Assembly: GCA_026396385.1 (NCBI GenBank)
Contig: JAPLWV010000026.1
Location: 1-55,717 of the forward strand
DNA length: 55,717 nt
Direction of reading: 5' to 3'
Source: Candidatus Micrarchaeota archaeon
GTDB taxonomy: Archaea; Micrarchaeota; Micrarchaeia; Burarchaeales; Fermentimicrarchaeaceae
Shown: one piece after another, positions 117-15,980 of the stretch
Numbering within the stretch: position 1 is the stretch's first letter
Layout of the letters: every line of letters begins with the position of its first letter
Notes under the pieces: generated by a model
Databases searched by the model: none
What the model saw: only the letters and a program-made list of their open reading frames with translations
Told to the model about the DNA's origin: nothing
Translations under genes and position numbers: made by a program

Positions 117-124
117 CCCCATGT

Positions 125-141
125 AAAGCAATCTTAATATA
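125..141 (+). promoter_or_regulatory. Motif A copy 1 (AAAGCAATCTTAATATA), orphan: no obvious downstream + strand gene
   Basis: Sequence identical to the copy at 5917-5933. It lies just after the TBP-fragment stop and faces the 3' end of the M23 gene. Confidence 0.5.
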
Positions 142-162
142 CTCACTATACAAGTATCTAAT

Positions 163-186
163 AGAGTGAGTGCAAGAGTGAGTGCA
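163..186. repeat. Perfect 12-nt tandem duplication AGAGTGAGTGCA x2
   Basis: Read directly. Located about 25-30 nt downstream of the TA-rich part of motif A copy 1. Confidence 0.9.
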
Positions 187-218
187 TGCTGGATGATTTT
201 GGAAGAAAGAAAAGTATA

Positions 219-1265
219 TCATTTTTGTTCTGCGTTAAAAATGTCATTTCTTACAAAAGTTTTTCCATTGAAAGCAATTGGAATTCCTTCTCCCAACCTA
301 TTTTCTGCATGAATGTGCAGATGCGGTCCGGTTGTTCTTCCTGAGTTGCCTATTTTTCCCAGAGGCTGTCCAGTTGTAACCAACTCTCCTTCAAGAACAA
401 GCAAACTCCCTTTTTTAAAATGAATAAGACTAACTCTCGCCCCCGAACAATCCAAAATAACATGATTCCCGCCAGGTTCTTTTTCATTTCTTTGCATAAT
501 TGGCATATCCTCTGAAAGATTATTTGTCTCAAAAACAATTCCACTGCACGGCGCATAAACTGTTTCATCAAAAATATAATAATCAGACAAATTGCTTGAA
601 AAGAATCCTTTTCCCATAAATCCAAGAGAATCTATTTTAATTATGTCATACGCATATTTCTGTGATTTAGATTCATGATGACTATTTAATGCAGCATTGC
701 TTCCTGCTTCCGCAAAAAAATATTGCCCCCCTTTCAAAGGAAACTCAAGTTGTACTGCCTCCACAGGATAGAACTGCGCGTTAAAGCAAGTAATAGCGGT
801 AAGCAAAAACAAAACTGCCATTATTAGTAAACAAGCATAATAAAAATAATCTTTGATTCCAAGTTTCTTAAATAAAGGAAGTTTTTTTGCATTTCTTGGA
901 AGTTTTGTCTTTAATTGGATCATCCATACTTTTTGAAAAGAATAAATACTGGCAATCAAAAACACTATTGGAAAAAAGTATCTTAAATAATAATTGATTC
1001 CAGCCCAAGGAAGTAAAAAATAAACCCAGATAATGGATGAAGCACTAAAAATAAAACGCACAATCCAATCAACTTTTGATTCATTTTTACCGACAATTTG
1101 CCACAGAATAAGCAAAAGTGGAAAAACCAGTGAAAACAAATAGAATGGAGCAAGTTCAGATATTGCAGTAAAATCCATATAGGCTAATAACTCTAAAAAC
1201 GTATAAAAGATTATGCCTTTTCCGATATTTAAGCTTTTTATTCTACGTAAGCCAGCGGCGTGCAC
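219..1265 (-). CDS. Multi-pass membrane protein with a C-terminal M23/LytM-family metallopeptidase domain
   Basis: 348-aa ORF. The N-terminal two-thirds is strongly hydrophobic. The C-terminus carries the M23 signature GQPLGKIGNSGRTTGPHLHIHAE. Very AT-rich. GTG start per the ORF track; an internal ATG at 1178 is possible. Confidence 0.75.
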   Translation of the reverse strand: MHAAGLRRIKSLNIGKGIIFYTFLELLAYMDFTAISELAPFYLFSLVFPLLLILWQIVGKNESKVDWIVRFIFSASSIIWVYFLLPWAGINYYLRYFFPIVFLIASIYSFQKVWMIQLKTKLPRNAKKLPLFKKLGIKDYFYYACLLIMAVLFLLTAITCFNAQFYPVEAVQLEFPLKGGQYFFAEAGSNAALNSHHESKSQKYAYDIIKIDSLGFMGKGFFSSNLSDYYIFDETVYAPCSGIVFETNNLSEDMPIMQRNEKEPGGNHVILDCSGARVSLIHFKKGSLLVLEGELVTTGQPLGKIGNSGRTTGPHLHIHAENRLGEGIPIAFNGKTFVRNDIFNAEQK

Positions 1266-1278
1266 CTCTCTTCAAGCC

Positions 1279-1295
1279 AAAGCAATCTTAGAATA
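1279..1295 (+). promoter_or_regulatory. Motif A copy 2 (AAAGCAATCTTAGAATA, preceded by CAAGCC)
   Basis: Conserved word AAGCCAAAGCAATCTTA in the 259-bp divergent intergenic region. Confidence 0.45.
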
Positions 1296-1452
1296 GGCCT
1301 TGCCTCTTTCTATCTTTTCCCGTTTTTCTCAGTTTCTTGTGTTGTAAGTTTTGATATGGCTTGCCAAATCTTTGTGCCTGTGTTTTGGTCATAAAACCAT
1401 CTATCAATAGTTGCTGAAAGAGGTATATTAACATTTTGGGGCAAATGAAGCC

Positions 1453-1469
1453 AAAGCAATCTTAAAATT
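1453..1469 (+). promoter_or_regulatory. Motif A copy 3 (ATGAAGCCAAAGCAATCTTAAAATT), putative promoter of the solo TBP-repeat gene
   Basis: TA-rich box about 55-60 nt upstream of the TTG start at 1525. Confidence 0.5.
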
Positions 1470-1524
1470 AGTCCATTAAAGGCTTGGTTATAAAGGAGTA
1501 GAGGAATAGAATATAGGTGTTTCA

Positions 1525-1830
1525 TTGACAAAGAAACTCACAATTGACTCAGCGTTCAAGATAGAGAACATAGTAGCTTCAGCCAATTTGGGAGTGGAGC
1601 TTGACCTTTATACCATTGCCAGCAAAATCAGGAACATAGAGTATGAGCCAGAGCAGTTCCCAGGGGCAATTCTTAAGCTGAAAGAACCAAAGGCATCTCT
1701 TCTGCTCTTCAAGAACGGCAAGGTAATATGCACAGGCTGCAAGAATGAGAGAGAAGTGAAGTATGCCCTGGAGCGGGCGATAAAGCTTCTGGCTTCCTAT
1801 GCAAAACCTCTGCCAGTCCCCAAGAAGTGA
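1525..1830 (+). CDS. Single-repeat (half) TATA-box-binding protein homolog
   Basis: The 101-aa ORF aligns along its length to one TBP repeat: KIENIVASANLGVELDL..EYEPEQFPGAILKLKEPKASLLLFKNGKVICTGCK..ALERAIKLL. Both Phe positions (EQFPG, LLLF) are retained. A canonical TBP has two such repeats (~180 aa). Confidence 0.8.
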   Translation: MTKKLTIDSAFKIENIVASANLGVELDLYTIASKIRNIEYEPEQFPGAILKLKEPKASLLLFKNGKVICTGCKNEREVKYALERAIKLLASYAKPLPVPKK

Positions 1831-1834
1831 GCAG

Positions 1835-2266
1835 ATGACAATAATCGGGAACAAAAGCAAATTGGCAAACTCGGAGATATGCCAAAGATGTGCCAAGTGT
1901 TGCAAGGAATATACTCTATACGATACTTTAGACTCCGCACTTAGGTTTAGATGGATGCTCGATAATACAATTATCACAGAGATCACAGAGGACACGCCTT
2001 TTACATTTGGGGATGGACTCGACATGAAGCAGATAACATTCAAAAAAGAGTGTGCTAAACTATATATGAAAGACGGAAAATATTACTGCTCGGTTTGGGA
2101 TAAGGAAAGACCTGATTTCTGTGCTATCGGCCCAGATAACTTATTTAGAGGAGTAGAAAAATGGAACAGGGAAAAGATACAGAAGATAATAGACTTTGAA
2201 AAAAAGGACTGCCCAATTTTTGAAACGATAACTGTTGATGAGGTAATTAAAAAATTGTGGAAGTGA
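1835..2266 (+). CDS. YkgJ/UPF0153-like cysteine-cluster (CxxCxxCC) zinc/iron-chelating protein
   Basis: ATG at 1835, 5 nt after the TBP-repeat stop (operon-like). CQRCAKCCK matches the CxxCxxCC signature, and more Cys residues follow downstream. The ORF-track start at 1799 overlaps the upstream gene and is less likely. Confidence 0.55.
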   Translation: MTIIGNKSKLANSEICQRCAKCCKEYTLYDTLDSALRFRWMLDNTIITEITEDTPFTFGDGLDMKQITFKKECAKLYMKDGKYYCSVWDKERPDFCAIGPDNLFRGVEKWNREKIQKIIDFEKKDCPIFETITVDEVIKKLWK

Positions 2267-2329
2267 AATCATGACGAAACAAAAAGATGAATTAACAAAA
2301 AAAGAAGTTAAAAAATAGAGGTGGTATAA

Positions 2330-2452
2330 ATGAAAGCTCCAACAGGTTGCATTTATAAGCGGGAAAAGAAGCGGAGGGCTAGGTATAAGGCATTTATTCT
2401 TCCTGACGGAACGGTTGGAACTAGAAAGATAAAAAAGGTGGTCTGTTATTAA
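2330..2452 (+). CDS. Small basic protein (40 aa), hypothetical
   Basis: MKAPTGCIYKREKKRRARYKAFILPDGTVGTRKIKKVVCY. Preceded by a strong Shine-Dalgarno-like GAGGTGG 6 nt upstream. Below the ORF-track length cutoff. Confidence 0.35.
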   Translation: MKAPTGCIYKREKKRRARYKAFILPDGTVGTRKIKKVVCY

Positions 2453-2565
2453 AGAGTGCATTAAGGTTCTTGACTATTTCAGTTCAAAGCTACAGCTGGG
2501 CATTAACATTTCAGTTCAGGATGCCAAGGACGAGAAGCTGTTTTTGAGTTCAGATTCCAACTTCC

Positions 2566-2582
2566 GAAGCAATCTTAATATA
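2566..2582 (+). promoter_or_regulatory. Motif A copy 4 (GAAGCAATCTTAATATA)
   Basis: The stretch AAGCAATCTTAATATACTCA is identical to copy 1. It lies 25 nt upstream of a motif B copy. Confidence 0.5.
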
Positions 2583-2606
2583 CTCATTAACAGATTCGTC
2601 CTGCTG

Positions 2607-2632
2607 TTTTAAATATTCAAAATGAGCAATTT
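2607..2632 (+). promoter_or_regulatory. Motif B copy (TTTTAAATATTCAAAATGAGCAATTT): TATA box plus conserved downstream block
   Basis: Same cassette as seven other copies. Here the motif-internal ATG (2622) is in frame with the MVEEK start at 2646. Confidence 0.6.
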
Positions 2633-4739
2633 AATAGGCGAACTTATGGTAGAGGAGAAAAATAAGAAACCGCCTGTGACAACGGTCGACTCTAAGGAGA
2701 TACAAAAAGAAGTTGCAAAGCTGCCTATCCAAATGGGGCCAAAGGAGAAAAGTATAAAACAGGAAATCCCGGAGCCTAGGATAAAGGACGTTAAGGGACT
2801 CTCTCAAGAAACAAGGGAACTTTACGAGTCAGTATTAGAAAAAATAAAGCTTGAAAAAAATGATAAGAACATCCTCCTTCTCGATAAATTGGCTGAAGCA
2901 TCACGCGAAGCAGGCTTCAACCAGCATGGCCTATTCAAGAATGCACTTCCAGAACTGACAGGAGTGATAAATAATACTGAAGATTTGAAAGAAATTGCGA
3001 AACTTGGAGAGGCGGCATGCAAGGCGGGTATTAATCCATCTGAAATATTCACATATGCACTGCCTGCACTGGCAGGAATTATAAGGAATTCAGAAGATTT
3101 GAAAGAAATTGTCAAGTTAGGAGAGGCAGCATATGAAGCAGGCTTCGATGCGCGTAAACTATTCAAATATGGACTGCCTCCACTGGCAGAAGCAGGGCTG
3201 ATAAAGAATAGTGACTATTTGAAGGAAATTGTAAGACTTGGGGAGGTGTCATACAAAGCAGACTTCGATCCATGCAGTCTATTCGAACATGCGCTTCCGT
3301 TAATGGCAGAAGCAGGGCTGATAAGGAATACAGAAGATTTGAAAGAAATTGTGAAATTGAGAGAGGCGGCATGCAAAGCAGGCTTCCATCAATCTGACAT
3401 ATTCAGATATGCGCTCCCTGCAATGGCAAAAGCAGGGCTGATAGAGAATACGGAAGACTTGAGGGAAGTTGTGAAATTGGGGAAGGCGTCATACGAAGCA
3501 GGCTTCGATCCATCCGACATATTCACAAATGCGCTTCCGGCAATGTTAGAAGCAGGGCTGATAGAGAATACGGAGGATTTGAAAGAACTTGTAAGGCTGG
3601 GAGAAGTATCATATGAAGCAGGCTTCAATCCATCTGACATATTCAAATATGCGCTTCCGGAAATGGTGGGGGCAGGGCTGATAGAGAGTATGGAAGATTT
3701 GAAAGAAATTGTGAAATTGGGGGAGGCAGCATGCAAAGCAAGCATCAATCCATGTAGTATATTCGAACATACACTGCCTGCGCTGGCAGAAGCAGGAAAG
3801 ATAGAGAATACAGAGGATATGAAGATTATGGGGTATGAGCTGGTAAAGCTCGGGGAGGCGGCACGCAAAGCAGGCTTCAATCCATCTTCCTTATTTGAGC
3901 ACGTGCTACCTGCACTGGCAAAGGCGGGAATCATAAAGGATAAAGAATATTTGAAGGAAATTGTAAGACTTGGGGAAGTATCATACGAAGCAGGCTTCGA
4001 TCCATATCAGGTATTCAAATATGCGCTCCCTGCAATGGCAGAAGCAGGGCTGATAAAGAATACAGAAGATTTGAAAGAAATTGTGAAATTGAGAGAGGCG
4101 GCATGCAAAGCAGACTTCAATCCGTCTCACCTATTTGAACATGCACTGCCTGCACTGGCAGAGGCAGTAAAGATAGAAAATACGGAGGATATGGGAGTTA
4201 TAGGAAATGAACTGGTAAAGCTTGGGGAGGCGGCACGCAAAGCAGGCTTCAATCCATCTCCACTATTCGAGTACGTAGTACCCGCATTGGCGAGAGGAAG
4301 AGTTGTAAAGAATAGTGAATATCTGAAGGAAGTTGTGAAGCTGGGGGAGGCAGCATACGAGGCGGGCATAGATCCAACTAAACTATTCGAGTATGCGCTT
4401 CCTCCACTGGGAGGAATGATAGATAATATTGAAGATTTGAAAGAGATTGTGAAGCTGGGAGAGGCGGCATGCAAAGCAGACTTCAATCCATCCCCGATAT
4501 TTGAATATGCAGTACCCGCATTGGCGAGAGCAGGGCTGGTGGATAATATTGACTATTTGAAAGAACTTGTGAAACTGGGGGAGGCAGCATATGAAGCAGG
4601 TATCAATCCATATAAGCTGTTTAGATATACGCTCCCGGCAATGGCAAGGGCAGGAAAGATAGATAATACAGAAGAACTGAGAGTTAGAGGGGATGAACTG
4701 ATAAAGCGGGAAGCATCACGCAATGGATCGAATCAATGA
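2622..4739 (+). CDS. Tandem-repeat protein: about 15 copies of a ~38-47-aa predicted helical repeat, function unknown
   Basis: Repeat consensus (D/Y)LKEIVKLGEAA(C/Y)(K/E)AGFNPSxxFxYALPA(L/M)AEAGLIxNTE. Substitutions cluster at a few positions. The start may be ATG 2646 (MVEEKNKK) if transcription begins downstream of the motif B TATA. Confidence 0.85.
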   Translation: MSNLIGELMVEEKNKKPPVTTVDSKEIQKEVAKLPIQMGPKEKSIKQEIPEPRIKDVKGLSQETRELYESVLEKIKLEKNDKNILLLDKLAEASREAGFNQHGLFKNALPELTGVINNTEDLKEIAKLGEAACKAGINPSEIFTYALPALAGIIRNSEDLKEIVKLGEAAYEAGFDARKLFKYGLPPLAEAGLIKNSDYLKEIVRLGEVSYKADFDPCSLFEHALPLMAEAGLIRNTEDLKEIVKLREAACKAGFHQSDIFRYALPAMAKAGLIENTEDLREVVKLGKASYEAGFDPSDIFTNALPAMLEAGLIENTEDLKELVRLGEVSYEAGFNPSDIFKYALPEMVGAGLIESMEDLKEIVKLGEAACKASINPCSIFEHTLPALAEAGKIENTEDMKIMGYELVKLGEAARKAGFNPSSLFEHVLPALAKAGIIKDKEYLKEIVRLGEVSYEAGFDPYQVFKYALPAMAEAGLIKNTEDLKEIVKLREAACKADFNPSHLFEHALPALAEAVKIENTEDMGVIGNELVKLGEAARKAGFNPSPLFEYVVPALARGRVVKNSEYLKEVVKLGEAAYEAGIDPTKLFEYALPPLGGMIDNIEDLKEIVKLGEAACKADFNPSPIFEYAVPALARAGLVDNIDYLKELVKLGEAAYEAGINPYKLFRYTLPAMARAGKIDNTEELRVRGDELIKREASRNGSNQ
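2877..4700 (+). repeat. In-frame ~114-141-bp tandem DNA repeats within the repeat-protein gene, with a higher-order ~3-unit duplication
   Basis: Recurring gaagatttgaaagaaattgtgaa..ggagaggcggcatgcaaagcaggcttcaatcc blocks. The units containing TEDMKIMGYELVKLGEAARKAGFNPS and TEDMGVIGNELVKLGEAARKAGFNPS indicate duplication of a multi-repeat block. Confidence 0.85.
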
Positions 4740-4785
4740 TTTAATCCTGCAACACCGGAACTGACAGACCCAGTAGCATGAAGCC

Positions 4786-4802
4786 AAAGCAAGCTTAAAT
4801 AT
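4786..4802 (+). promoter_or_regulatory. Motif A copy 5 (ATGAAGCCAAAGCAAGCTTAAATAT)
   Basis: About 30 nt upstream of ATG 4824. Confidence 0.5.
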
Positions 4803-4823
4803 CGGAAAAGGCATAATTTAATC

Positions 4824-5888
4824 ATGCTCAAGACAAGAGAGTATCAAGGACTGCCTGAAGCCGGGAATAAAGTGCAGGCGGAATTCCTGAAGGCTGCAGA
4901 AACCACACGCAGGATAGAGGAGTTTTCCAGGCACGTGGGTTCGGAAGAAATAATCAAAAGGGTACACGACAAACACGGCAGATTCATATTCCTAGACAAA
5001 GAAACTGTTTCAAAACTGCAGCTGAGAGCAAAGATGTCGTGCAAATGGGAAGAGGCGGGAGACTCCATTATGATGACTCCTCTGGAGAAAGCAGCAATTC
5101 AAGCGAAAATAATATTCAACCCTTCTAGCAATTCATTCATGGCAGTGCTTCCTAAGGGCATGCAGCCTGCGCAGCAATTCAAAGCCGGGGATGACGTGGA
5201 GTGGAGCTATGAGGGAAGGAGCCGGCTCTCGCTGGAAAAAGTGCTCTATCCTGGTATAATTCCCATCGTAACACTTAGCAGCGGCGGAAAGCACGGGACA
5301 GTCAGCCTACCTAAAAATATGGCTCTTGCGCTGGGGCTTGGGGGAAAGAAGCTGTGCGAATGGAATGAAGAGGGGAATTGCCTGATAATAACTCCTCTGG
5401 AGTTCAAAAAAAAGGACCAGCTCGTATCAAAAATTACGGAAAATCACAAAAGAGTGAGGTTGTATATACCTAGAGCAGTACAGGGAGCCGTCCGGGAAGG
5501 CGATGAAGTCATCATCAAGGGCATGGGGGACGGGAAGCTCTACATGTGGCGAATGGAAGACTTTCCCGGAGAGACTGGAGACAAGCTGCGCAACATCACA
5601 AAGATAAGGGGTTATGGCAGCGACAGCCTGCAAGCAACCATTACAAATTCAATGGCAAAGGAACTGAAAATCGAGAATGGGATGCACGGAGTCTGGACTC
5701 TTCATAAGGGGGAGCTATGGCTTGAGCTGACGCATGAGAACCCGCATATTACCGCAGTGATAGAGGAGAGGACGCCCAAGCACATATTCAGCATCTACCT
5801 ACCAGATGATATCGGCAAATCCCTCAAGGAGGGAGACAGGATTACCCTGGAAGTGTGGTACGGGAAGCTTTACATCCAGAAGAAGTAA
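4824..5888 (+). CDS. Protein built from about six tandem AbrB/SpoVT-like (swapped-hairpin) modules
   Basis: Six ~45-55-aa modules match the AbrB/MazE pattern (x-hhh-LPKxhxxxLxhxxGDxhxhxxxxGxhhhxP): GRFIFLDKETVSKLQL.., FMAVLPKGMQPAQQFKAGDDVEW.., GTVSLPKNMALALGLGGKKLCEW..CLIITPLE, VRLYIPRAVQGAVREGDEVIIKGMGDGKLYMWRME, LQATITNSMAKELKIENGMHGVW..LWLELT, FSIYLPDDIGKSLKEGDRITLEVWYGKLYIQK. Confidence 0.55.
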   Translation: MLKTREYQGLPEAGNKVQAEFLKAAETTRRIEEFSRHVGSEEIIKRVHDKHGRFIFLDKETVSKLQLRAKMSCKWEEAGDSIMMTPLEKAAIQAKIIFNPSSNSFMAVLPKGMQPAQQFKAGDDVEWSYEGRSRLSLEKVLYPGIIPIVTLSSGGKHGTVSLPKNMALALGLGGKKLCEWNEEGNCLIITPLEFKKKDQLVSKITENHKRVRLYIPRAVQGAVREGDEVIIKGMGDGKLYMWRMEDFPGETGDKLRNITKIRGYGSDSLQATITNSMAKELKIENGMHGVWTLHKGELWLELTHENPHITAVIEERTPKHIFSIYLPDDIGKSLKEGDRITLEVWYGKLYIQKK

Positions 5889-5916
5889 GCGGCAAGGCTT
5901 GATGTAAAATGAACCC

Positions 5917-5933
5917 AAAGCAATCTTAATATA
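5917..5933 (+). promoter_or_regulatory. Motif A copy 6 (ATGAACCCAAAGCAATCTTAATATA)
   Basis: About 30 nt upstream of the start at 5957. Confidence 0.5.
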
Positions 5934-5956
5934 TCTCCGAACATCAAGTATGACTG

Positions 5957-7393
5957 ATGGTCTCTTTAACATTCTTCGGCGGGGTCGGGGAGATAGGCGG
6001 CAACAAGATACTGCTGAAGGACAGGAAGACAAGGATATGGCTTGACTTCGGGATGAGCTTCTCCAAATCTGCCGAGTTCTACTCGGATTTTCTCGGTCCC
6101 AAGAAGTGCAATGGAATCGGGGATTACATCGAACTGGGGCTTGTCCCGGACATCAAGGGGCTTTACCGGGAGGACTACCTGAAGAAGATGGGCAGGGACA
6201 AGGAGGAAAGCGGGTTTGACGGGATCCTGCTCTCCCACGCGCATCTTGACCACAACGGGCATTTGGACCTCGTGAGGCCTGACATACCGCTATACTGCTC
6301 CCAGGGTTCGAAATGCATAATGGAGATGATTGACACAACAAGCGGCGGCGAGTTCCTGAGGGAAAAGGTAAGCTTCCGCTTCGTCCCGAAGAAGAGGGGG
6401 GAAGGTTTGAAGCGGCTGGACAGCAGGGAGCCTGAAGGGATTGTTGAGAGAGTTGTCAACGTGGTTGAAAAGCCGTTTAAAGTCGGGGATTTGGAAGTCA
6501 CGCCAATGCCTGTGGACCATTCCCTTCCGGGTGCATTGGCATTCGCAATAGAGACAAGCGAAGGTGCAGTCATCTACTCCGGGGATTTCAGGTTCCACGG
6601 CCTTAATGAGAAGAAGACAAGGGAATTCGTTGAAAAAGCCTCTGGGTTTGAGCCGGCTGCATTCATCTGCGAAGGAACCAGGATTGACAGCAACAAGACA
6701 GAGACTGAGAGGGATGTTTACAGCACGGTGACGAAGTTCTGCAAGGACTGCGAGGCCCTCATAATCGCAAACTACCCCCTCCGTGATACCGACAGGATGA
6801 CGACTTTCCTGAATGCTGCAAAGGACCATGACAGGAAGCTGGTGGTAAACCTGAAGCAGGCTTTCCTGCTTGATGCGTTCGGGAAGGCAGGGCAGGAAGC
6901 TCCAAGGCTGGAGGATGTCTCTATCTACATTCCGCGCAAGTCCTGGGGCCTGGTGACAGAAGACATGGATCCTGACCTGGTGCACGGTGATTATGAAACA
7001 TGGGAGTGCCAGTTTATTGATGCTGGCAACTCGATAACCTGCGAGGAGCTCAGGAAGAACCAAGATGAATATCTGTGGCACTGCGACTTCTTCGAGCTTA
7101 AGGAGCTTATTGACGTGAAGCCGATGAAGGCAAGCAAGTACGTGTGGAGCGTTACCGAGCCATTTGACGTGGTAATGGAGCTTGACGAGCAGATAGTGAT
7201 GAACTGGCTCGCGCATTTCAACATAACCGAGATAACCAGGTCGCATGTGTCCGGGCATGCAAACGGGCGGGATCTGAAGGAGACGATTGACGCGATTAAA
7301 CCGAAGAAGCTCTTTGCAGTGCATACGGAGCATCCTGAGATGTTTGAGAATGTGAGAGTGGTGGAGAAGGGGAAGGAGTGCGAGGTTGGGTGA
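5957..7393 (+). CDS. Metallo-beta-lactamase/beta-CASP ribonuclease, archaeal RNase J-like
   Basis: N-terminus FFGGVGEIGGNKILL. HxHxDH motif LLSHAHLDHNGHL. C-terminal HVSGHANGRDLKETIDAIKPKKLFAVHTEH matches the RNase J SGHA...P...HGE pattern. Size (478 aa) fits archaeal RNase J. Confidence 0.7.
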   Translation: MVSLTFFGGVGEIGGNKILLKDRKTRIWLDFGMSFSKSAEFYSDFLGPKKCNGIGDYIELGLVPDIKGLYREDYLKKMGRDKEESGFDGILLSHAHLDHNGHLDLVRPDIPLYCSQGSKCIMEMIDTTSGGEFLREKVSFRFVPKKRGEGLKRLDSREPEGIVERVVNVVEKPFKVGDLEVTPMPVDHSLPGALAFAIETSEGAVIYSGDFRFHGLNEKKTREFVEKASGFEPAAFICEGTRIDSNKTETERDVYSTVTKFCKDCEALIIANYPLRDTDRMTTFLNAAKDHDRKLVVNLKQAFLLDAFGKAGQEAPRLEDVSIYIPRKSWGLVTEDMDPDLVHGDYETWECQFIDAGNSITCEELRKNQDEYLWHCDFFELKELIDVKPMKASKYVWSVTEPFDVVMELDEQIVMNWLAHFNITEITRSHVSGHANGRDLKETIDAIKPKKLFAVHTEHPEMFENVRVVEKGKECEVG

Positions 7394-7452
7394 GGGATGT
7401 AACCATGGTTACAATCGCAGTATTTGATTGACTGGTATTTCTATAAGGTGTT

Positions 7453-7791: not shown

Positions 7792-8157
7792 ATGGATTCA
7801 GAAGCTACTTTGGATGACTTAAAGAAGACCGTTAAAAAGTTTTGCGAAGATAGGGACTGGGATCAGTACCACAATGCGAAAGATTTAGCAATAGGGATTA
7901 TAACCGAATCATCAGAACTGTTGGAGCACTTCCGCTTCAAGTCAGAAAAGGAGATAGAGGAGATGTTCAAGGACTCAAGGAAAAAAAGTGAGATTTCAGA
8001 GGAGATGGCGGACGTATTCTACTTCCTCCTTAGACTGGCTCAGAAGTATGATATAGACCTCGGTTCTGAGCTGAGTAAGAAAATAGCACACAATGAGAAG
8101 AAATACCCAGTTGAAAAATCAAGAGGCTCTAATAAAAAATATACGGAGCTGCTGTAG
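7792..8157 (+). CDS. MazG-like nucleoside triphosphate pyrophosphohydrolase (DCTPP1/all-alpha NTP-PPase type)
   Basis: FCEDRDWDQYHNAKDLAIGIITESSELLEHFRFK and EEMADVFYFLLRLAQKYDIDL give the ExxE and EExxD metal-binding helices. KIAHNEKKYP tail. Confidence 0.8.
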   Translation: MDSEATLDDLKKTVKKFCEDRDWDQYHNAKDLAIGIITESSELLEHFRFKSEKEIEEMFKDSRKKSEISEEMADVFYFLLRLAQKYDIDLGSELSKKIAHNEKKYPVEKSRGSNKKYTELL

Positions 8158-8159
8158 AT

Positions 8160-10013
8160 ATGAAATTATATGAAGGAGATTTAGAGCAATTCAGAGAAGA
8201 CGTTCTTAATAATAGAATCGCAGATATAATGCGGAATAAAGCCAATGAGTATAAAGTAAATGTTAGCAGATCCGAGTATAGGTCTTGGCAGATTTCTCCA
8301 AGAGTCTTTAAAGATGCAGTTTCTCAGCTCCATAATAACAAGATTATACTCGAATACAGATTCCCTAACTATGGCGGAAGAATAGACGTCATTCTTTTTG
8401 GTAAGCATAACGGGTCGGACCAGGTAGTCATTACAGAATTGAAGCAATGGTCAAATGATAGTGTAAGCGACTGTGAGGATGAGGGAAGCGTGATAGCAGA
8501 GATTAATGGGCATATGGTGAAAATGGCTCATCCATCATCACAGGTTGAGGGTTATTACCTTAGCTTAATAGACAACTTACAAGTTTTTGATGAGAAACCA
8601 GAGATAAAATTGCATGCTTCTGCATACTGCCATAACTACTCTAGAGAGAATGACAAGGTGCTATACCAGGATAAATTCAAAGAAATAACCGACAAATATC
8701 CACTATTTACAAAAGAGGACAATGCAAAACTTGGCGAATATCTCAGAGACAGGCTGGTAGACGATAACGGGATAGAAGTCTTTAATCGCTTCGTAAACAG
8801 TCCTGTAAGGCCATCTAAAGGTTTAATACAGCACGTAGGGGACATGATTAACAAGCAACAGATATTTAATTTAATTGACGAGCAGATACCGGCACGCAAT
8901 GCAATTATCAGCAGGGCAAAGGAATTGGCAAAGTCTGGTAAGAAATTCGTGATAATTGTAAAGGGAGGGCCCGGCACTGGAAAGTCTGTCATTGCACTGG
9001 AGACAATGGCAGAACTCCTGAGGAAAGGGAAGAACGTATTTTATGCAACAGGCTCATCCGCATTTACAAATACTCTTAGGAAGGTTGCGGGTAAAAGGGC
9101 AAAAGACAGGTTCAAGTATTTCTTCAGCTTTACGCGTCATAAAGAAAATGAGATTGATGTGCTAGTGTGCGATGAGGCACATAGGCTAAGGAAGAATAGC
9201 GCAGATTACGGAGTTCCTTCCCATCTCAAATCAGAGTTGCCGCAGGTTGAAGACTTGATACGGCCAGCTAGACTAACTGTCTTCTTCATAGATGAGCATC
9301 AGATAGTAAGGCCGAGTGAAGTTGGGGATGTTGCACTGATTAGACAGGCTGCTTTAAAGCTTAATGCTGAAGTAGAGGAATTTGATTTAAAAACTCAATT
9401 TAGATGCGGAGGTTCAGAAGCCTATTTGCAATGGCTGGAGAATACTCTTGGCATAACAGAATCCGAGGTGCGGATGCTGGGTAAAAATGAACAGATGGAA
9501 TTTAAAATATTTGACAGCCCAGAAGCGCTTAGGGATGCGATATACGAGAAGAACAAGGCAAGGCCTAATTTCGCTAGAATCGCAGCAGGTTTCTGCTGGC
9601 CATGGAGTAAGCCGAACGCTGATGGTAGTTTAGTTAATGATGTAAAAATAGGAAGTTTTGAGATGCCGTGGGAGAGGAAGGACGAGTTTTGGAAATGGGC
9701 CACAGATGAGAGCGGAATGGAGCAGGTTGGAACAGTTTATACTGCACAGGGGTTTGAATTTGACTACATTGGGGTTATTTTTGGGAAGGATTTGATTTAT
9801 GACAAGGAGAATAACACTTGGAAGAGCGATCCGAAGAGTTCGCATGACAGCATGATAAAAAGGAATAATGAAACTTTGACAAAACACTTGAAAAACGTAT
9901 ATCGCGTTTTGATGTCAAGGGCGCATAAGGGAGTTTACATCTATTTTATGGATAAGGATACGGAGAACTTCTTTAAGTCTAGAGTAGAAAGCTACAACCC
10001 GCCCCCAAGGTGA
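8160..10013 (+). CDS. DUF2075-type (Schlafen-helicase-like) P-loop ATPase with an N-terminal PD-(D/E)xK nuclease-like domain
   Basis: N-terminal GRIDVILFG..VVITELKQW (D..ExK). Walker A VKGGPGTGKSV. Walker B VLVCDEAHRL. C-terminal YTAQGFEFDYIGVIFG and VYRVLMSRAHKGVYIY, typical of DUF2075/SF1-like proteins. Starts 3 nt after the MazG stop. Confidence 0.75.
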   Translation: MKLYEGDLEQFREDVLNNRIADIMRNKANEYKVNVSRSEYRSWQISPRVFKDAVSQLHNNKIILEYRFPNYGGRIDVILFGKHNGSDQVVITELKQWSNDSVSDCEDEGSVIAEINGHMVKMAHPSSQVEGYYLSLIDNLQVFDEKPEIKLHASAYCHNYSRENDKVLYQDKFKEITDKYPLFTKEDNAKLGEYLRDRLVDDNGIEVFNRFVNSPVRPSKGLIQHVGDMINKQQIFNLIDEQIPARNAIISRAKELAKSGKKFVIIVKGGPGTGKSVIALETMAELLRKGKNVFYATGSSAFTNTLRKVAGKRAKDRFKYFFSFTRHKENEIDVLVCDEAHRLRKNSADYGVPSHLKSELPQVEDLIRPARLTVFFIDEHQIVRPSEVGDVALIRQAALKLNAEVEEFDLKTQFRCGGSEAYLQWLENTLGITESEVRMLGKNEQMEFKIFDSPEALRDAIYEKNKARPNFARIAAGFCWPWSKPNADGSLVNDVKIGSFEMPWERKDEFWKWATDESGMEQVGTVYTAQGFEFDYIGVIFGKDLIYDKENNTWKSDPKSSHDSMIKRNNETLTKHLKNVYRVLMSRAHKGVYIYFMDKDTENFFKSRVESYNPPPR

Positions 10014-11489: not shown

Positions 11490-12157
11490 TTATCCCTTCT
11501 TCATTCGCCTGAACTCCGAAAGCTCAACGGGCCTGGCGACCTCTATAAGCCTGTCGATCGCATCATTGATTGACTTCGCGTTTATCCCCATGATGTCGCC
11601 AATCACGTATTCATTCACCGGCCTGCCGGCCTTGTAGCAGGCATGGTATACCGCCGCAGCTGAGAGCGCCATGGGGTCGGAAACGGGCGTTTTCTTCCTC
11701 TTCTCGTATCTGGAGAGAGTGTCTTTCGCAATCCCTGCAACCTCCCCCTCATGCTTCCTGTCCAGCCAGCCGCTCTCCGCCAGGAAAGACACAGCAGAAT
11801 CAACGTAATCGGCCGGCTTCTCTATCATTTTCACATCTGTCATCTTCCTTGCTTTTTGCATCTCAGCCGGATCCACTGTCTGCCATATGTGCGCACCCCT
11901 GAGCAAGTCCACGGGGCATTTGTTGTTGTCCAGGGAGAGCTGCATTGCCACCCTCGCCTGGAGTTTGGGATTCAGGCCAAGCTTCTCAATCTTCTTGTAG
12001 AATTCGGAAGCATCGCCGATAATTGCTGCTATTTTTTCCTTACTCACAAACAATTTTGATTTTCCCTCGTGATAGGACTTAAGGGAGCCTTCAAGCAGCT
12101 TATCAAACGTCCTCGCTGGCGTTTCATCCATCTTCTTAATGGATATGGTTTCGCTCA
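11490..12157 (-). CDS. TFB/TFIIB-like cyclin-fold protein lacking the N-terminal zinc ribbon
   Basis: The likely start is ATG 12157 (MSETISIKK), about 30 nt downstream of a motif B TATA; the ORF-track start at 12257 would include the promoter. PADYVDSAVSFLAESG...DPMALSAAAVYHACYKAGRPVNEYVIGDIMGINAKSINDAIDRL matches the TFB core cyclin-repeat pattern. Confidence 0.5.
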
Positions 12158-12170
12158 TATGATCACGACA

Positions 12171-12196
12171 ATATTGCTCATTTTGAATATTTAAGC
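12171..12196 (-). promoter_or_regulatory. Motif B copy (gene orientation GCTTAAATATTCAAAATGAGCAATAT)
   Basis: Conserved cassette upstream of the TFB-like gene. Confidence 0.6.
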
Positions 12197-12263
12197 ATAA
12201 GCCCAAGATGCTTCGGAAATGCCAAGAAAAGCCAAACTTTAGCGCATGATTAATCAAAGAACC

Positions 12264-12776
12264 TCAGTGCTGGATTTTTAGTTTTTTCGCAGCCTGGTTC
12301 TCCTCTTTAATCCTGGCACTCCCCGCTTTTTCCAAGTTTTTAATTTCCTCATCCATTTCATGCACCCCGGCTGCCTTGCCGAAACCGTAACCAATCAGGG
12401 CAACGCCGGCTGCGAATGCAAGCTCCAATGCATTTTGCGGAAGGCCCAGCCTAAGCAGTTCACCCGCGGTTGCCGTAATGCCAACTGCAGCGCATGCAAT
12501 TACCCCGGCAGTTATATAGTTCGCACTGCGCGCAATTTTATCCTTCGCAATCTCCCGCAGCTCTTTTAGCTGCTCCTCAAGCGTCTTTACCTTACTCTCC
12601 ACTTTCTCTTTTAATTTCTGCCCGACTGTTTTCTTCTCGACTACTGTCTCCTTTGGCCCTTTTTGGATAGCCGGAAGCTTTGCAGCTTTAGATGTCCCCT
12701 CAAAGCTGGTTGTTATATCTCCTGAAAATTTATGGGGCTTTTCCTCAACTTTCTTCTCTACCATAAACATCACCAC
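12264..12776 (-). CDS. Coiled-coil membrane protein with an MVEKK-type N-terminus, function unknown
   Basis: 170 aa. Two hydrophobic helices (ANYITAGVIACAAVGITA, LAFAAGVALIGYGFG). The N-terminus MVEKKVEEK..AKLPAIQKGPKE is shared with the repeat protein at 2622. The probable start is ATG 12764. Confidence 0.6.
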   Translation of the reverse strand: MVMFMVEKKVEEKPHKFSGDITTSFEGTSKAAKLPAIQKGPKETVVEKKTVGQKLKEKVESKVKTLEEQLKELREIAKDKIARSANYITAGVIACAAVGITATAGELLRLGLPQNALELAFAAGVALIGYGFGKAAGVHEMDEEIKNLEKAGSARIKEENQAAKKLKIQH

Positions 12777-12777
12777 T

Positions 12778-12803
12778 AAAATTGCTCATTTTCAATATTT
12801 AAA
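12778..12803 (-). promoter_or_regulatory. Motif B copy (GTTTAAATATTGAAAATGAGCAATTT)
   Basis: Conserved cassette. The motif-internal ATG opens a 14-codon out-of-frame uORF. Confidence 0.6.
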
Positions 12804-12854
12804 CATAAGCCATAGCTGCTTTACCTTCGTCCTTTTCCAAAATAAGCTTTTAGG

Positions 12855-13301
12855 TTACCCAAGGGGTTGTTTTTCCAGCAATAACTGAGGTACTGTTTTC
12901 CGAATTCTTTTGTTACGTTCCTCCAACTCCTTGTTATGTTCCTTCAGCCATTCTTTTACTTGGGGGTTTTTTAGGAAATCCCCAATCTCTTTTTCCAAAT
13001 TCTTGGGTTCGGCGTTCCACAGGTGGACGGCATCTGAGTAAACTTGGATTTTATTTAATTCTCCACTCTGTGAGAAATCCAACTTGACATCTTGTGCAAG
13101 TTTTTCCTTACCACTAATACGACTACGCCACTGAAGCGTTCCATCGTCCGTAAGATGTATCATTATTTCTCTTGTGTCTCTATCGTTCGTTTTTCCCCAA
13201 CTCAATTCCTTTCCAACCCACGTCCTTTCTTTATTTAGTTCAAGCTTGACACCCTGAAACGTTATCTCTTCCGCCTTCTTTTCTACCATAAACACCACCA
13301 A
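12855..13301 (-). CDS. Hypothetical protein, paralog of the 31327-31821 product
   Basis: VKLELNKERTWVGK..IHLTDDGTLQWRSR..VKLDFSQSGELNKI..LWNAEPKNLEKEIGDFL..VKEWLKEHNK aligns with IELELTKDKSWAGR..VHFKEGGTITWCSR..VSLNFKQDGKLNRI..LWSANIEELERKMREFL..VKEWLKERNK. The probable start is ATG 13289. Confidence 0.6.
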   Translation of the reverse strand: MVVFMVEKKAEEITFQGVKLELNKERTWVGKELSWGKTNDRDTREIMIHLTDDGTLQWRSRISGKEKLAQDVKLDFSQSGELNKIQVYSDAVHLWNAEPKNLEKEIGDFLKNPQVKEWLKEHNKELEERNKRIRKTVPQLLLEKQPLG

Positions 13302-13303
13302 TT

Positions 13304-13329
13304 AAATTGCTCATTTTGAGTATTTAAGC
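13304..13329 (-). promoter_or_regulatory. Motif B copy (GCTTAAATACTCAAAATGAGCAATTT)
   Basis: Conserved cassette. Confidence 0.6.
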
Positions 13330-13368
13330 ATAACCTCAAGAGACACCTTGGTTTCTTCTAACTCCCTG

Positions 13369-14190
13369 CTATTGCATTTTCTTCTTCTGAGCAAGCTTCA
13401 GGGAATGCTGCGCATCCAAATCGTCGGGGTTAAGCTCAATTACTTTCCTGAAGTCCCGTATAGCCTCGTCATACTCTTCCTTATCGAGATGATCAGTGCC
13501 TCTGTTGTCATAAGCAATCGAGTCAATAACCTCAAGCTTGGAAGTTATGGCATAGATCACACGGCGTTTCTTCGTCAGCCAATCAACAGAGCAATAGCCC
13601 GGCTTTGAGTCTTGGGTTGTTTCAAAGAAGAAATCCTCGGTTCTGATACGTGTATGCTCAGGAACTATAACGAACTCAACCGGCACGCCCAATTCCCTTC
13701 CGACATCAAAGACAAGCGTGGAGCAGTTATCACAAGCCCACAAGCCCTTATCAAGGGACTCATACAGGAAGCCAACCCTGTTCTCTTCGTACTTTACACC
13801 CAAATCATACAAGTTGCCGTATAGTATGCCCCAGATTCCTGTTATGAAATCCTCCTGCAGCTGCTTCTTCCCTTCCTTTGTAAGCCCCTCGTAGGTGTTT
13901 TTGCCAGTCTTAGTGTCATAGCCGGATACTCCTTCCCCCTTCAGTATGCCTGCAACTGAGTCAACCAGGCTCAGGTACATATCTGTATATTTCTCACGCT
14001 TGCTCTGGGGCTTAAATTCCAGATCTACCTTAAGCCTCCTTGCCCCGGCATACCCCTCAGCATCAAAACGCCTTTCGGCATGAGGCGCTCTCCCAAGTTT
14101 ATCAAGCGCCAAATTTGCCCATGGATTCCCTTCCCCTGTCTTTAGTTCATCTGCTGCTTTGTATGCGCCGCCCATGCTGAAATTGCTCAT
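13369..14190 (-). CDS. Transglutaminase-like cysteine-protease-fold protein with a C-terminal TPR motif
   Basis: LWACDNCSTLVFDVGRELGVPVEFVIVPEHTRIRT fits the Cys..His core of the transglutaminase-like superfamily. The C-terminal YDNRGTDHLDKEEYDEAIRDFRKVIELNPDD is a TPR. The ORF-track start 14190 is the motif-internal ATG; ATG 14175 (MGGAYK) is more likely. Confidence 0.5.
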   Translation of the reverse strand: MSNFSMGGAYKAADELKTGEGNPWANLALDKLGRAPHAERRFDAEGYAGARRLKVDLEFKPQSKREKYTDMYLSLVDSVAGILKGEGVSGYDTKTGKNTYEGLTKEGKKQLQEDFITGIWGILYGNLYDLGVKYEENRVGFLYESLDKGLWACDNCSTLVFDVGRELGVPVEFVIVPEHTRIRTEDFFFETTQDSKPGYCSVDWLTKKRRVIYAITSKLEVIDSIAYDNRGTDHLDKEEYDEAIRDFRKVIELNPDDLDAQHSLKLAQKKKMQ

Positions 14191-14205
14191 TTTCGATATT
14201 TAAAG
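14180..14205 (-). promoter_or_regulatory. Motif B copy (CTTTAAATATCGAAAATGAGCAATTT)
   Basis: Conserved cassette. Confidence 0.6.
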
Positions 14206-14225
14206 TCAGTGCCAAGGGAAACCGC

Positions 14226-15044
14226 TCACCCTTCGTCAGCCACTTCATCCTGTCTTTTAATCCACTTTTCGTAGGTTATGACTCCCCCAGCGGTTGCGTG
14301 CCTTACGTCTAGTAATTTTGCGTTTATGTTCCTCTCCGCACGTACGTCCCTTGCGCGTAGTGCCCCGCTTACGATTACATCCCTCCCCGCGTGTACGTCC
14401 CCGTCCGTGAGTATACGCTCCATGGTTATGTCCCCTCCTGCGCTTATGCTCCTGTCGTCACTGTCTACGTTTAGCCAGGAATCACTGTGTGCGTATATGT
14501 TCCGTCCGCGTATGTTTCCCCCTACATTCATGTGCCTATAAATTATGTCTCCTACTGTTACGTCTCCGTCCACTTGTACGTCCTCTCCGTCCATGTTTCC
14601 CCCTGCGGTTACGTTTCCTCTTATGTTTGTTTTCCCCCCCATTACGTCAAAATACGCTGTTACGTCTCCTCCCACGCTTAGGCCATATACTGCCATTACG
14701 CTGCTCATTGAGGTTATGTTCCCCCCTACGATTATGTGATTTGCGTTTACCACGTCCCCTGCGTGCATGTTCCCCCCTACGTTTAGGTCCCCCATCACTG
14801 CGTATCCCTCTAAGGTTAAGTTGCCTTTGACTGTCAGGTTAAATCTCTCCTTCCCCCGAATTTCGCCCTTCACTATCAGGTCCCCATCCACCACCATGTC
14901 CTTCTCCAATATCAGGTCTCCCTTTATGACTATCGCTCCACTATTCTTCCTTTCGTCTATTTTCGGGATTTTTTTAATCTTGTCCGTAATGTCTTTCTTA
15001 ATGTCTTCATTCGTTCTCACTTTTTCTACCATAAACATCAACAT
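14226..15044 (-). CDS. Beta-helical repeat protein, bactofilin/polymer-forming-cytoskeletal-like
   Basis: Dozens of short repeats of the type GDLxVxGxhxxGDVxV (DGDLIVKGEIRG, GDLNVGGNMHAGDVV, VGGDVTAYFDVMGG, GNVTAGGNMDGEDVQVDGDVTVGD...). MVEKV N-terminus. The probable start is ATG 15032. Confidence 0.5.
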   Translation of the reverse strand: MLMFMVEKVRTNEDIKKDITDKIKKIPKIDERKNSGAIVIKGDLILEKDMVVDGDLIVKGEIRGKERFNLTVKGNLTLEGYAVMGDLNVGGNMHAGDVVNANHIIVGGNITSMSSVMAVYGLSVGGDVTAYFDVMGGKTNIRGNVTAGGNMDGEDVQVDGDVTVGDIIYRHMNVGGNIRGRNIYAHSDSWLNVDSDDRSISAGGDITMERILTDGDVHAGRDVIVSGALRARDVRAERNINAKLLDVRHATAGGVITYEKWIKRQDEVADEG

Positions 15045-15046
15045 TA

Positions 15047-15072
15047 AAATTGCTCATTTTTGATATTTAAAA
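15047..15072 (-). promoter_or_regulatory. Motif B copy (TTTTAAATATCAAAAATGAGCAATTT)
   Basis: Conserved cassette. Confidence 0.6.
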
Positions 15073-15157
15073 TCAGCACCCAGAGAAACCAAATGGATTT
15101 CTCTTTCAAATCCAGCCCAGTCCATGGAAGAATTTACTTCATAAAAATACTTGGAGA

Positions 15158-15646
15158 CTAAACCCTAATTTCGTCCGTAAGTAGAAGAGTATTATTGATT
15201 CTTGTAAATACGAACCTCCTACTGCACCTCTTGCATTGAACTTCGCAAAAGTCAGGGGATAGCCTAAAACCCACTTTATGCCCCCATGTGACTTTTTTTA
15301 TCTTTTCGTTGCATGATGGGCACTTAACATTCTCCAACATCCAGTTGCTTATAGGACGGAAGAGAAAGGGAGCAAAGCGAGTAAACGAAAACAGAAAGAT
15401 AACCGCTTCTAATAGTAATAAGCCGTATATGATATCAGTTTGTTGAGATAAAGGAATAGCCGACCAAGAAAGCAGAGCAACTATAAGCAGAAGAGGCAAC
15501 AATAACAAAACAAGCAGATTAAGATAATACCTAAAAAATGCATTCGATGGTATCATATAATGCACAGTCCTCTTCCAGTCCCGGCCTCCCCAAAAAGTCG
15601 CTATTGCCGCAACATTCATCGAATCTTTAAGTTCCTTTTCGTTCAT
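15158..15646 (-). CDS. Membrane protein with a C-terminal zinc ribbon
   Basis: Two long hydrophobic segments, then CPSCNEKIKK...CEVQCKRCSRRF (CxxC..CxxC). Confidence 0.55.
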   Translation of the reverse strand: MNEKELKDSMNVAAIATFWGGRDWKRTVHYMIPSNAFFRYYLNLLVLLLLPLLLIVALLSWSAIPLSQQTDIIYGLLLLEAVIFLFSFTRFAPFLFRPISNWMLENVKCPSCNEKIKKVTWGHKVGFRLSPDFCEVQCKRCSRRFVFTRINNTLLLTDEIRV

Positions 15647-15760
15647 GATAATCCACCAGACTAGCGTTAATATTTTTGTATATATTAACTTTGCTACCTT
15701 GCCAACCTAATATCCTCAGCCGTAACCGTCTTCCTGCATGCTTCGCCAGCTTCACCGAAT

Positions 15761-15786
15761 AAATTGCTAATTTCCGATATTTAAAG
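15761..15786 (-). promoter_or_regulatory. Motif B copy, degenerate (CTTTAAATATCGGAAATTAGCAATTT)
   Basis: Lies about 115 nt upstream of ATG 15646. A second TA-rich box sits closer to the start. Confidence 0.4.
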
Positions 15787-15890
15787 GAATGTTCGGAATG
15801 CGGAAAACACATTAATAAATATTGCTTGCATAAATCTAATGCTCGAGAGGTGAAGCAGAGTTAATCGGTTAGTTTGCGGAATCTACGAGA

Positions 15891-15980
15891 GGGCCCGTGG
15901 CGCAGCCTGGATAGCGCGGCAAGAGCAATCCCGTAAGCCTTCTAAGCTGAAGGTCGTGGGTTCAAATCCCACCGGGCCCG
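15891..15980 (+). tRNA. tRNA-Arg(UCU) carrying a ~15-nt insertion/intron at a non-canonical position, 5' of the anticodon loop
   Basis: GGGCCCG-TG-GCGC-AGCCTGGATA-GCGC-G-[33 nt instead of 17]-AGGTC-GTGGG-TTCAAAT-CCCAC-CGGGCCC-G. The loop CTTCTAA and 3' stem GCTGA parallel the tRNA-Arg(CCU) at 39497. Removing ~15 nt (AGAGCAATCCCGTAA) restores a GCAGC/GCTGA stem. Confidence 0.75.

Follow-up and report, generated by a model that had tools for sequence, protein, structure and literature searches.

A repeated promoter-like motif coincides with cassette borders in a variable region of a Micrarchaeota genome

Motif A is a sequence of about 21 nt that occurs in six copies near one end of a 55,717-nt stretch of DNA from a Candidatus Micrarchaeota archaeon (contig JAPLWV010000026.1 of assembly GCA_026396385.1; this whole stretch is referred to as the window). 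The motif is repeated in front of functionally unrelated accessory genes, is restricted to a variable region of the window and to close relatives, keeps regular distances to start codons, and coincides with the breakpoints at which related strains differ in gene content. These observations favor, with moderate confidence, the interpretation that motif A is the BRE (transcription factor B recognition element) and TATA part of a portable family of archaeal promoters, the copies of which serve as exchange points for accessory gene cassettes.

Copies of motif A in the window and in relatives

The six copies, found within positions 119-5933, follow the pattern (G)AAGCCAAAGCAAtCTTAAwAtA: copy 1 at 119-141 (CCATGTAAAGCAATCTTAATATA), copy 2 at 1273-1295 (CAAGCCAAAGCAATCTTAGAATA), copy 3 at 1447-1469, copy 4 at 2560-2582, copy 5 at 4780-4802 (GAAGCCAAAGCAAGCTTAAATAT) and copy 6 at 5911-5933. 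A preliminary description of this DNA had already listed six copies at these locations, all on the + strand, which is borne out by word searches and by a position weight matrix (PWM) derived from the six copies. It had also treated them as copies of a single extended word. Copy 5 has the 5' half in common with the others, but a different version of the TATA part (AAGCTTAAATAT). The 17-mer AAAGCAATCTTAATATA has five matches with up to three mismatches, compared to 0.31 expected, and five were reached in 0 of 100 shuffles; for the 5' word GAAGCCAAAGCAAT, four matches with up to two mismatches compare to 0.84 expected. The six copies score 27-33 bits with the PWM. Scanning positions 5934-55717 on both strands yielded no match of 14 bits or more, in line with the earlier claim that the element is absent from core-gene promoters and confined to accessory genes: zero copies are found in the other 49.8 kb of the window, with core genes such as PolD, aminoacyl-tRNA synthetases (aaRS), EF1A, MCM and TopoVI. 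A repeat search of the window recovers motif A independently (families D8 and D11).

The loci of relatives (L numbers) were fetched via the gene for a single-repeat, or solo, TATA-binding protein (TBP), i.e., they were selected independently of the motif. Strong copies (>18-20 bits) are restricted to the closest relatives, whose solo TBPs are at least 88% identical. Their number is five in L002, four each in L003 and L004, and two in L185; L187, a 287-kb contig, has eight copies inside 7 kb and none in the remaining 13 kb that were fetched. In L002-L004 and L187, as in the window, all copies are in variable regions. Motif A is absent from L005, which belongs to the same metagenome-assembled genome (MAG) as L003, and a PWM scan of about 150 more distant Micrarchaeota and Iainarchaeota loci did not find it either. 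A scan of IMG/VR with AAAGCAATCTTAAWATW gave 102 single matches, all of them in low-GC phage coding DNA and none with the GCC/GAAGCC 5' part. These matches are chance hits, and the idea of a viral family was dropped.

After collapsing orthologous copies, about 20 contexts with unrelated downstream genes are available for alignment (solo TBP, methyltransferase, PsbP-like, HAD, Big_1/CarboxypepD_reg, multi-AbrB, beta-CASP, and unknowns). The conserved span comprises about 21 nt, a.GCC AAAGCAA kC TTAAwAww (positions -4..+16), and the flanks are random. AAAGCAA is invariant over these contexts, and the TATA half is the variable half. The leading 'ATG' of the consensus given in the preliminary description is not conserved in relatives.

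Motif A as a putative archaeal promoter

Archaeal promoters combine a TATA box with the BRE, a conserved A-rich element that adjoins the TATA box upstream (PMC7289017). Judged by its sequence, motif A appears to have both features, the TATA box and the orienting A-rich BRE: positions +9..+16 read TTAAwAww in 20 contexts, close to the TTTAAATA TATA boxes of the core genes in the window, and AAAGCAA is located 2 nt upstream of the TATA part, i.e., at the position of the BRE. Motif A is therefore most likely a BRE/TATA promoter, and the earlier view of a promoter-like element gains support from this anatomy and from the spacing to start codons. Strong copies are oriented with the downstream gene, with one exception, a 23-bit copy on the minus strand of L003 (2122), and all matches of at least 18 bits in the window, L002, L004 and L187 are located on the strand of the TBP gene.

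Measured from the end of the motif, the start codon follows after 55 nt at copy 3 (solo TBP, 101 aa, 1525-1830, + strand; the leader contains a GGTG Shine-Dalgarno sequence), 39 nt at copy 4 (705-aa repeat protein), 21 nt at copy 5 (ATG of the multi-AbrB gene at 4824, at leaderless spacing) and 23 nt at copy 6 (in-frame ATG of the beta-CASP/RNase J-like gene at 5957). These values correct the range of 30-60 nt described previously. In relatives, gaps of 22 nt (L004 6540) and 21 nt (L187 12178 and 13198) are found, as well as gaps of 31-34 nt with a GGTGG/GGAGG Shine-Dalgarno sequence in between (L002 9175, L004 10389, L187 10392). Gaps of 21-23 nt would fit leaderless transcripts, and those of 31-34 nt would correspond to short Shine-Dalgarno leaders. 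Solo-TBP genes have leaders of either 55 nt or about 100 nt. The latter type (L004 9900-9990; L185 916-1005; L187 9926-9990) opens with a 9-codon open reading frame (ORF; ATGAGTGAGAGTATGGTGGGAGGCATCTAA), which is spaced from the motif as in a leaderless gene. Words resembling C/D boxes in the TBP leaders were discounted, as D boxes are absent.

In the proposed sequence of events, TTAAwAww would be the binding site of TBP, and the invariant AAAGCAA(kC) just upstream that of TFB. Initiation about 22 nt downstream would then give a leaderless or short-Shine-Dalgarno-leader mRNA of whichever gene comes next. The extra GCC/GAAGCC positions may provide a contact for a dedicated factor. Since the invariant part is on the BRE side and the TATA half varies, the pattern points away from a TBP-specific signal.

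Two further observations concern the sequences around motif copies in relatives. Before the solo-TBP gene, L187 (9903-9925) and L186 (102-124) have kept GAAGCCAAAGCAA, while the TATA part is deleted in comparison with L004 and L185 (AAGGTTGATGAG); the motif may have been naturally disabled there. In L187, two motif copies are followed by paralogous segments of about 85 nt (8566-8650 and 15695-15780; ..TTTTACGT.GTA.AA.TCGTTT.GCCTCGGACGCTGT.GA..), for which neither a common ORF nor an Rfam match was found.

Cassette junctions at motif copies

When the window is compared with its relatives by blastn, homology blocks begin and end at motif copies. Positions 125-1295, which comprise copy 1, the reversed M23 peptidase gene (219-1178, minus strand) and copy 2, correspond to L187 11022-12199, where this cassette has different neighbors. 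Likewise, positions 1274-1468, from copy 2 to copy 3, correspond to L002 9002-9196, and the next gene there is of the Big_1 type, not TBP. Of 100 internal endpoints of high-scoring segment pairs among eight sequences, 30 are no more than 10 nt away from a copy. A uniform null predicts 1.9, and its highest value in 2000 trials was 8; the remaining endpoints are mostly at the borders of the multi-copy TBP gene.

Wild populations were covered by Logan contigs from eight sediment and groundwater metagenomes (X numbers). Depending on the population, copy 4 precedes three different genes, encoding the 705-aa repeat protein, the RNase J-like protein, or a Big_1-type protein. In X3, the gene behind copy 4 is the RNase J-like one (joint 2582>5990), and the 56 nt in between match the interval 5934-5989 in length. 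In X8, a Big_1-type leader comes after copy 4, and in X6, where copy 4 also leads to the RNase J-like gene, a copy-6-like junction; the metagenome joints across the interval from copy 4 to copy 6 are 2582>5990 and 2583>5914. The genes in this interval (2622-5888, + strand), encoding the 705-aa repeat protein and the 354-aa multi-AbrB protein, are strain-specific cassettes bounded by copies 4 and 6, and read depth over 2671-5874 is zero in X6, X8 and X9. On the upstream side, at least five different sequences precede copy 2 in relatives and populations, and at least two others precede copy 5. In X1 and X2, the RNase J-like gene is followed by a palindrome (GTAACCATGGTTAC), a good motif copy (AAAGCAATCTTGATATTC), and the solo-TBP leader and gene.

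TATA variants of the motif go with the downstream flank and variants of the 5' part with the upstream flank. This segregation with their own flanks implies crossovers within the common AAGCAAkCTTAA core. As the same 21 nt are found in the same orientation before many neighboring accessory genes, the copies are proposed to act as short homology. Cassettes would be deleted, inserted or swapped at this homology, resulting in a hypervariable array within a narrow clade of Micrarchaeota.

The orphan copies 1 and 2 offer a further view on this process. As noted previously, neither has a + strand gene, and both are located at the 3' ends of genes on the minus strand. A partial solo-TBP duplicate (1-115) has its stop codon 9 nt before copy 1, which is directed into the 3' end of the M23 gene, and the TATA part of copy 2 overlaps the stop codon of a minus-strand ORF of 34 aa (1288-1392; MTKTQAQRFGKPYQNLQHKKLRKTGKDRKRQGLF). 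A pure promoter model has no need of such copies, whereas their positions are what the insertion of a segment via recombination between direct motif copies would leave. An orphan would accordingly mark the remaining upstream border of a cassette with an oppositely oriented gene. The ortholog of copy 1 in L187 (11016) has kept the full GAAGCC 5' part, with homology between window and L187 beginning at base 125. The next 60 nt are kept along with it, and indels between window and L187 in this stretch make a conserved small RNA unlikely; Rfam searches of window positions 1-16.5 kb and of L187 found no RNA family downstream of any copy. At L187 12178, the 5' half of copy 2 heads a leaderless gene of 318 aa.

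Copies 2 and 3 had been described as a tandem pair. Their 174-nt spacer is not empty, as it holds the conserved 34-codon ORF. The encoded peptide is very basic, and four relatives show synonymous differences (CCA/CCG/CCC, CTA>TTA, TTC>TTT). No match in Pfam or NCBIfam was obtained for it. A TTAATATA box is located 30 nt upstream of this ORF on the minus strand.

Promoter activity, binding factors and the recombination mechanism are the parts of this best explanation that we infer, and several points weigh against it. The null of the endpoint test was uniform rather than intergenic-only, and endpoints are not independent of each other. A coincidence of breakpoints and motifs is partly expected if each gene has this promoter at its 5' edge. 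The identical core comprises just 7-13 bases, which is short for ordinary homologous recombination, and no recombinase gene was seen in the island. Only one island per genome was examined. Moreover, all bearers of the motif are close relatives by solo-TBP identity, so that conservation alone is a weak sign of selection. Finally, the TATA variation of copy 2 is explained by the overlapping minus-strand ORF, and this copy may therefore be inactive as a promoter.

The host-dependent DPANN archaea have tiny genomes, and the variation of their accessory genes is poorly understood. A broader reading, which is put forward tentatively and with less than even confidence, is that in a DPANN lineage a 21-nt promoter could double as a cassette exchange point. 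Recombination within the BRE/TATA module would add, remove and reshuffle accessory genes, including those for extra single-repeat TBPs, possibly via excised circles, and lineage-specific initiation factors may read the module. If true, it would account for new genes being expressible on arrival, for strain diversity without dedicated recombinases, and for the breaking of assemblies of these organisms at such loci. It would also provide a defined, very strongly conserved promoter sequence for a phylum without genetic tools, and the motif A region could serve as a test bed for promoter specificity via single-repeat TBPs or other factors.

Alternative explanations

Motif A could instead be the operator or upstream activating sequence of a dedicated regulator. 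According to this explanation, a specific transcription factor, a TFB paralogue or a homodimer of the solo TBP would recognize GAAGCCAAAGCAA with its tandem AAGCNA hexamers, and the genes behind the copies would form a co-regulated regulon. The multi-AbrB protein behind copy 5 is one example of a candidate factor, and selection for the factor would keep the copies similar. A regulator is compatible with a promoter function and differs only in what maintains the motif; nevertheless, it appears rather unlikely. The seven invariant bases plus GCC do exceed the 3-5 bp usually ascribed to the BRE, and the upstream sequences at core-gene promoters of the same genome differ from the motif, but the half that would contact TBP, the TATA part, is the variable one. 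Similarly, solo-TBP genes carry the motif themselves, yet a second class of solo-TBP paralogues (L005, L189) has an ordinary TTTAAATAT promoter. In other archaea, multiple TBP/TFB combinations confer promoter specificity (PMC7289017), which sets a precedent; however, Pfam detected no TFIIB/TFB domain in any window ORF scanned, at variance with the TFB-like proteins that had been mentioned for this region. The downstream genes have no common function, and orphan copies and block junctions are left unexplained by a regulator. Near-identity over 21 nt in unrelated contexts is also easier to reach by copying than by convergence.

The direct orientation of the copies, the cassette-like blocks that they bound, and the orphan copies that flank reversed genes would equally suit a site-specific recombination site. 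The array would then be integron-like and served by a dedicated recombinase, and the resemblance to a promoter would be secondary. This is improbable for several reasons. Integron attC sites have a length of 55-140 nt, compared to the 21 nt of motif A. The crossover point is not fixed but differs (5' edge, middle or 3' edge), and start codons follow at distances as regular as for a promoter. A Phage_integrase gene does exist at the edge of the L002 locus, but it is 6.5 kb off and behind housekeeping genes, and no integrase or recombinase domain was found in window positions 1-16 kb, the window beginning inside the array. A hairpin or attC structure was rejected by folding of the six copies, which show neither inverted repeats nor a common fold (z -2.2 to +1.0). 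A remnant of a miniature inverted-repeat transposable element or insertion sequence was rejected as well, because repeat search and flank alignment revealed no terminal inverted repeats or target-site duplications.

It is very improbable that the copies serve as promoters for an integrated element (virus or plasmid) that encodes the factors recognizing them, such as the solo TBP, and mark a provirus beside the tRNA gene at 15891. The motif is confined to the region, which has low G+C in 1-4 kb and 7-11 kb and a tRNA at its inner edge, and the M23 peptidase and MazG-like genes have phage relatives. Yet no hallmark genes for capsid, portal, terminase, integrase or replication were found, the matches in IMG/VR are the single chance hits described above, the L002 array abuts ArgRS, and strains vary cassette by cassette rather than in one unit. 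Least credible is the notion of passive, functionless remnants of recent local duplications. Recent duplicates do exist (1-113 versus 1718-1830, 96% identity; a 27-nt perfect inverted repeat, see below), but in about 20 contexts, which have unrelated flanks, similarity stops within a few bases on either side of the motif. Alignments show that the copies do not lie inside longer decayed duplications, and they are placed and oriented regularly with respect to start codons.

Motif B and mosaic promoters

A second element, motif B, consists of a TATA box and a downstream segment (TTTAAATATyrAAAATGAGCAATTT..GGTG.TGTTTATGGTAGA). A + strand copy of motif B (TTTTAAATATTCAAAATGAGCAATTTAATAGGCGAACTTATGGTAGAG; 2607-2650), with the TATA box and downstream module of the same promoter family, is found 24 nt past copy 4 of motif A and is followed by the gene for the 705-aa repeat protein. 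Six copies on the minus strand (12156-15790; TATA boxes at about 12194, 12802, 13327, 14204, 15071 and 15785) head a set of paralogous genes. In several motif B copies, the ATG within ATGAGCAAT and the gene are in different frames, so this ATG is not the start codon. The genes of this set (11490-15812, minus strand) have the motif B promoter and the first codons (ATGGTAGAr...) in common, and their bodies differ (TPR, FapA/beta-solenoid-like, unknown); the set resembles a family with a shared 5' end and a variable remainder.

A kinship of motifs A and B had been suggested previously, based on a shared AGCAAT core and on AAGCC(C/A)AAG words near the minus-strand copies of motif B. In L187 (12184, 13204 and 15034), the 5' half of motif A is fused to the TATA and downstream part of motif B, so that the two are related as modules of one mosaic promoter family, but not as two similar sites. 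The AGCAAT of motif B is located downstream of the TATA box and is not positionally equivalent to that of motif A, and the AAGCC(C/A)AAG words are no more frequent than expected by chance: the window contains 7 occurrences of AAGCCNAAG, of which that at 12199 has the opposite orientation. A third module (TTAAATATcggaaaaggcataat) is common to copy 5, L004 6540 and the promoter of the M23 peptidase gene (1205-1236, minus strand), which has the same TATA and downstream module as copy 5 (AAGCTTAAATATCGGAAAAGGCATAAT) and a degenerate 5' half. Positions 4791-4817 (copy 5 and downstream) and 1210-1236 (M23 promoter) on the opposite strand form a 27-nt perfect inverted repeat, and recombination between its arms would invert the intervening 3.5 kb. 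The modules of motif A, motif B and the third type indicate that the promoters of the region are mosaics of few modules.

Weaker elements of this kind occur elsewhere in the variable region. A motif-A-like promoter (GGCAAGGTAGCAAAGTTAATATA; 15681-15703, minus strand) is located 34 nt upstream of the ATG of a 162-aa gene (15158-15646) and matches motif A at 14 of 23 positions, including AGCAA..TTAATATA. Directly upstream of some motif A copies, and just past the stop of the RNase J-like gene, there is a perfect 14-nt palindrome (GTAACCATGGTTAC; GTAACCATAGTTAC in L187) at window 7400-7413, L002 ~6951-6964, L003 ~5071-5084 and L187 ~15014-15027. It precedes only few copies and may be terminator-like or a protein-binding site. 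In the window, a possible degenerate motif A copy (AATCGCAGTATTTGATTGAC; together with the palindrome 7400-7435, + strand) follows it; in relatives, good copies come directly after this palindrome.

The variable region and its genes

Window positions 16-55 kb are full of archaeal core genes (PolD, aIF2-gamma, S6e, aIF5B, ScpAB, EF1A, MCM, TopoVI and several aaRS). The first 16 kb have a patchy, low G+C content of 0.38-0.41, compared to 0.48 elsewhere, and contain accessory genes for the M23 peptidase, the solo TBP, a CxxCxxCC protein, the 705-aa protein composed of 120-nt repeats, the multi-AbrB and beta-CASP/RNase J-like proteins, a MazG-like protein, an SLFN-like helicase, and the paralogous gene set. 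The window begins inside a second solo-TBP copy, positions 1-113 being the duplicate of the 3' end of the gene (1718-1830) mentioned above. Homologues of the 101-aa single-repeat TBP carry Micrarchaeota source names, and the best genome matches are Micrarchaeota MAGs. In close relatives, at least two single-repeat TBP genes are clustered in a few kb (L002 7036-7344 and 10001-10315; L003), and both single-repeat (~100 aa) and two-repeat TBPs (~175-200 aa) occur across Micrarchaeota.

The 705-aa protein is missing from several populations and contains about 13 or more tandem repeats of 40 aa (120 nt; window 2848-4748) with 60-79% DNA identity. In the beta-CASP/RNase J-like gene (5957-7393, + strand), an out-of-frame ATG is found 7 nt before the start and 16 nt past the motif, opening a 31-codon ORF (5950-6045) that overlaps the gene start. 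Further downstream (7792-10013), a gene for a MazG-like pyrophosphatase is followed by one for a 617-aa SLFN-group-3/DUF2075-type helicase, which matches the PADLOC models PDC-S41, Nhi and AbiO. Based on these matches, the two look like a defense gene pair within the variable region. PHROGs and PADLOC revealed no viral hallmark genes, and the SLFN-like helicase is the sole resemblance to defense proteins. ARAGORN predicts two 91-nt tRNAs with odd anticodons ('???' and 'Stop tta') at 15891-15981, i.e., at the inner edge of the variable region, and at 44114-44204; both probably contain introns.

Comparison with known systems

A literature search found no such element described in archaea, and nothing specific on a Micrarchaeota promoter or solo TBP. 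As in the archaeal core promoter, which consists of BRE and TATA box and depends on TBP and TFB, motif A joins an A/T-rich octamer to an adjoining A-rich upstream element (PMC7289017). It is also oriented toward the gene, and its distance of 21-23 nt to the start codon would fit leaderless transcripts. In contrast to a core promoter, motif A is nearly identical over 21 nt in front of unrelated genes, its upstream part exceeds the usual BRE, and it is confined to a variable region and not found at core genes.

The Borrelia upstream homology box (UHB) of the erp, ospE-F and mlp genes is a promoter-containing upstream segment that is common to different genes and has been proposed as a recombination substrate. 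Motif A is similar in that a conserved, (putatively) promoter-containing segment is shared by different genes. The UHB, however, is bacterial, much longer, located on plasmids, and precedes paralogous families of lipoproteins, while motif A precedes unrelated genes.

Arrays of integron cassettes with attC sites have been reported in Archaea, too, and integron cassettes are mostly promoterless. Integrons and the motif A region both contain unrelated genes separated by a repeated site in the same orientation, and strains differ in the presence or absence of cassettes. Unlike attC, motif A lacks an imperfect inverted repeat that could form a hairpin, no IntI-type integrase is found next to it (window 1-16 kb), and each motif A cassette would have its own predicted promoter.

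Another parallel is provided by the promoter-early stem-loop (PeSL) elements of T4-type phages, which are mobile regulatory cassettes (Arbiol et al. 2010, PMC2839356; Comeau et al. 2014, PMC4122927). In both cases, short conserved promoter motifs, predicted ones for motif A, are repeated in hyperplastic regions rich in non-essential ORFs, and the ends of insertions, deletions and replacements between close relatives fall at the motifs. A PeSL consists of a sigma-70 promoter and a terminator stem-loop, whereas motif A is of the archaeal type, has no common stem-loop, and is found in a cellular DPANN genome instead of a phage. By this comparison, motif A would be an analogue of PeSL rather than a member. 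If the proposed exchange at motif copies is true, the region would represent a cellular archaeal counterpart of PeSL shuffling in phages and a recombinase-free alternative to integrons.

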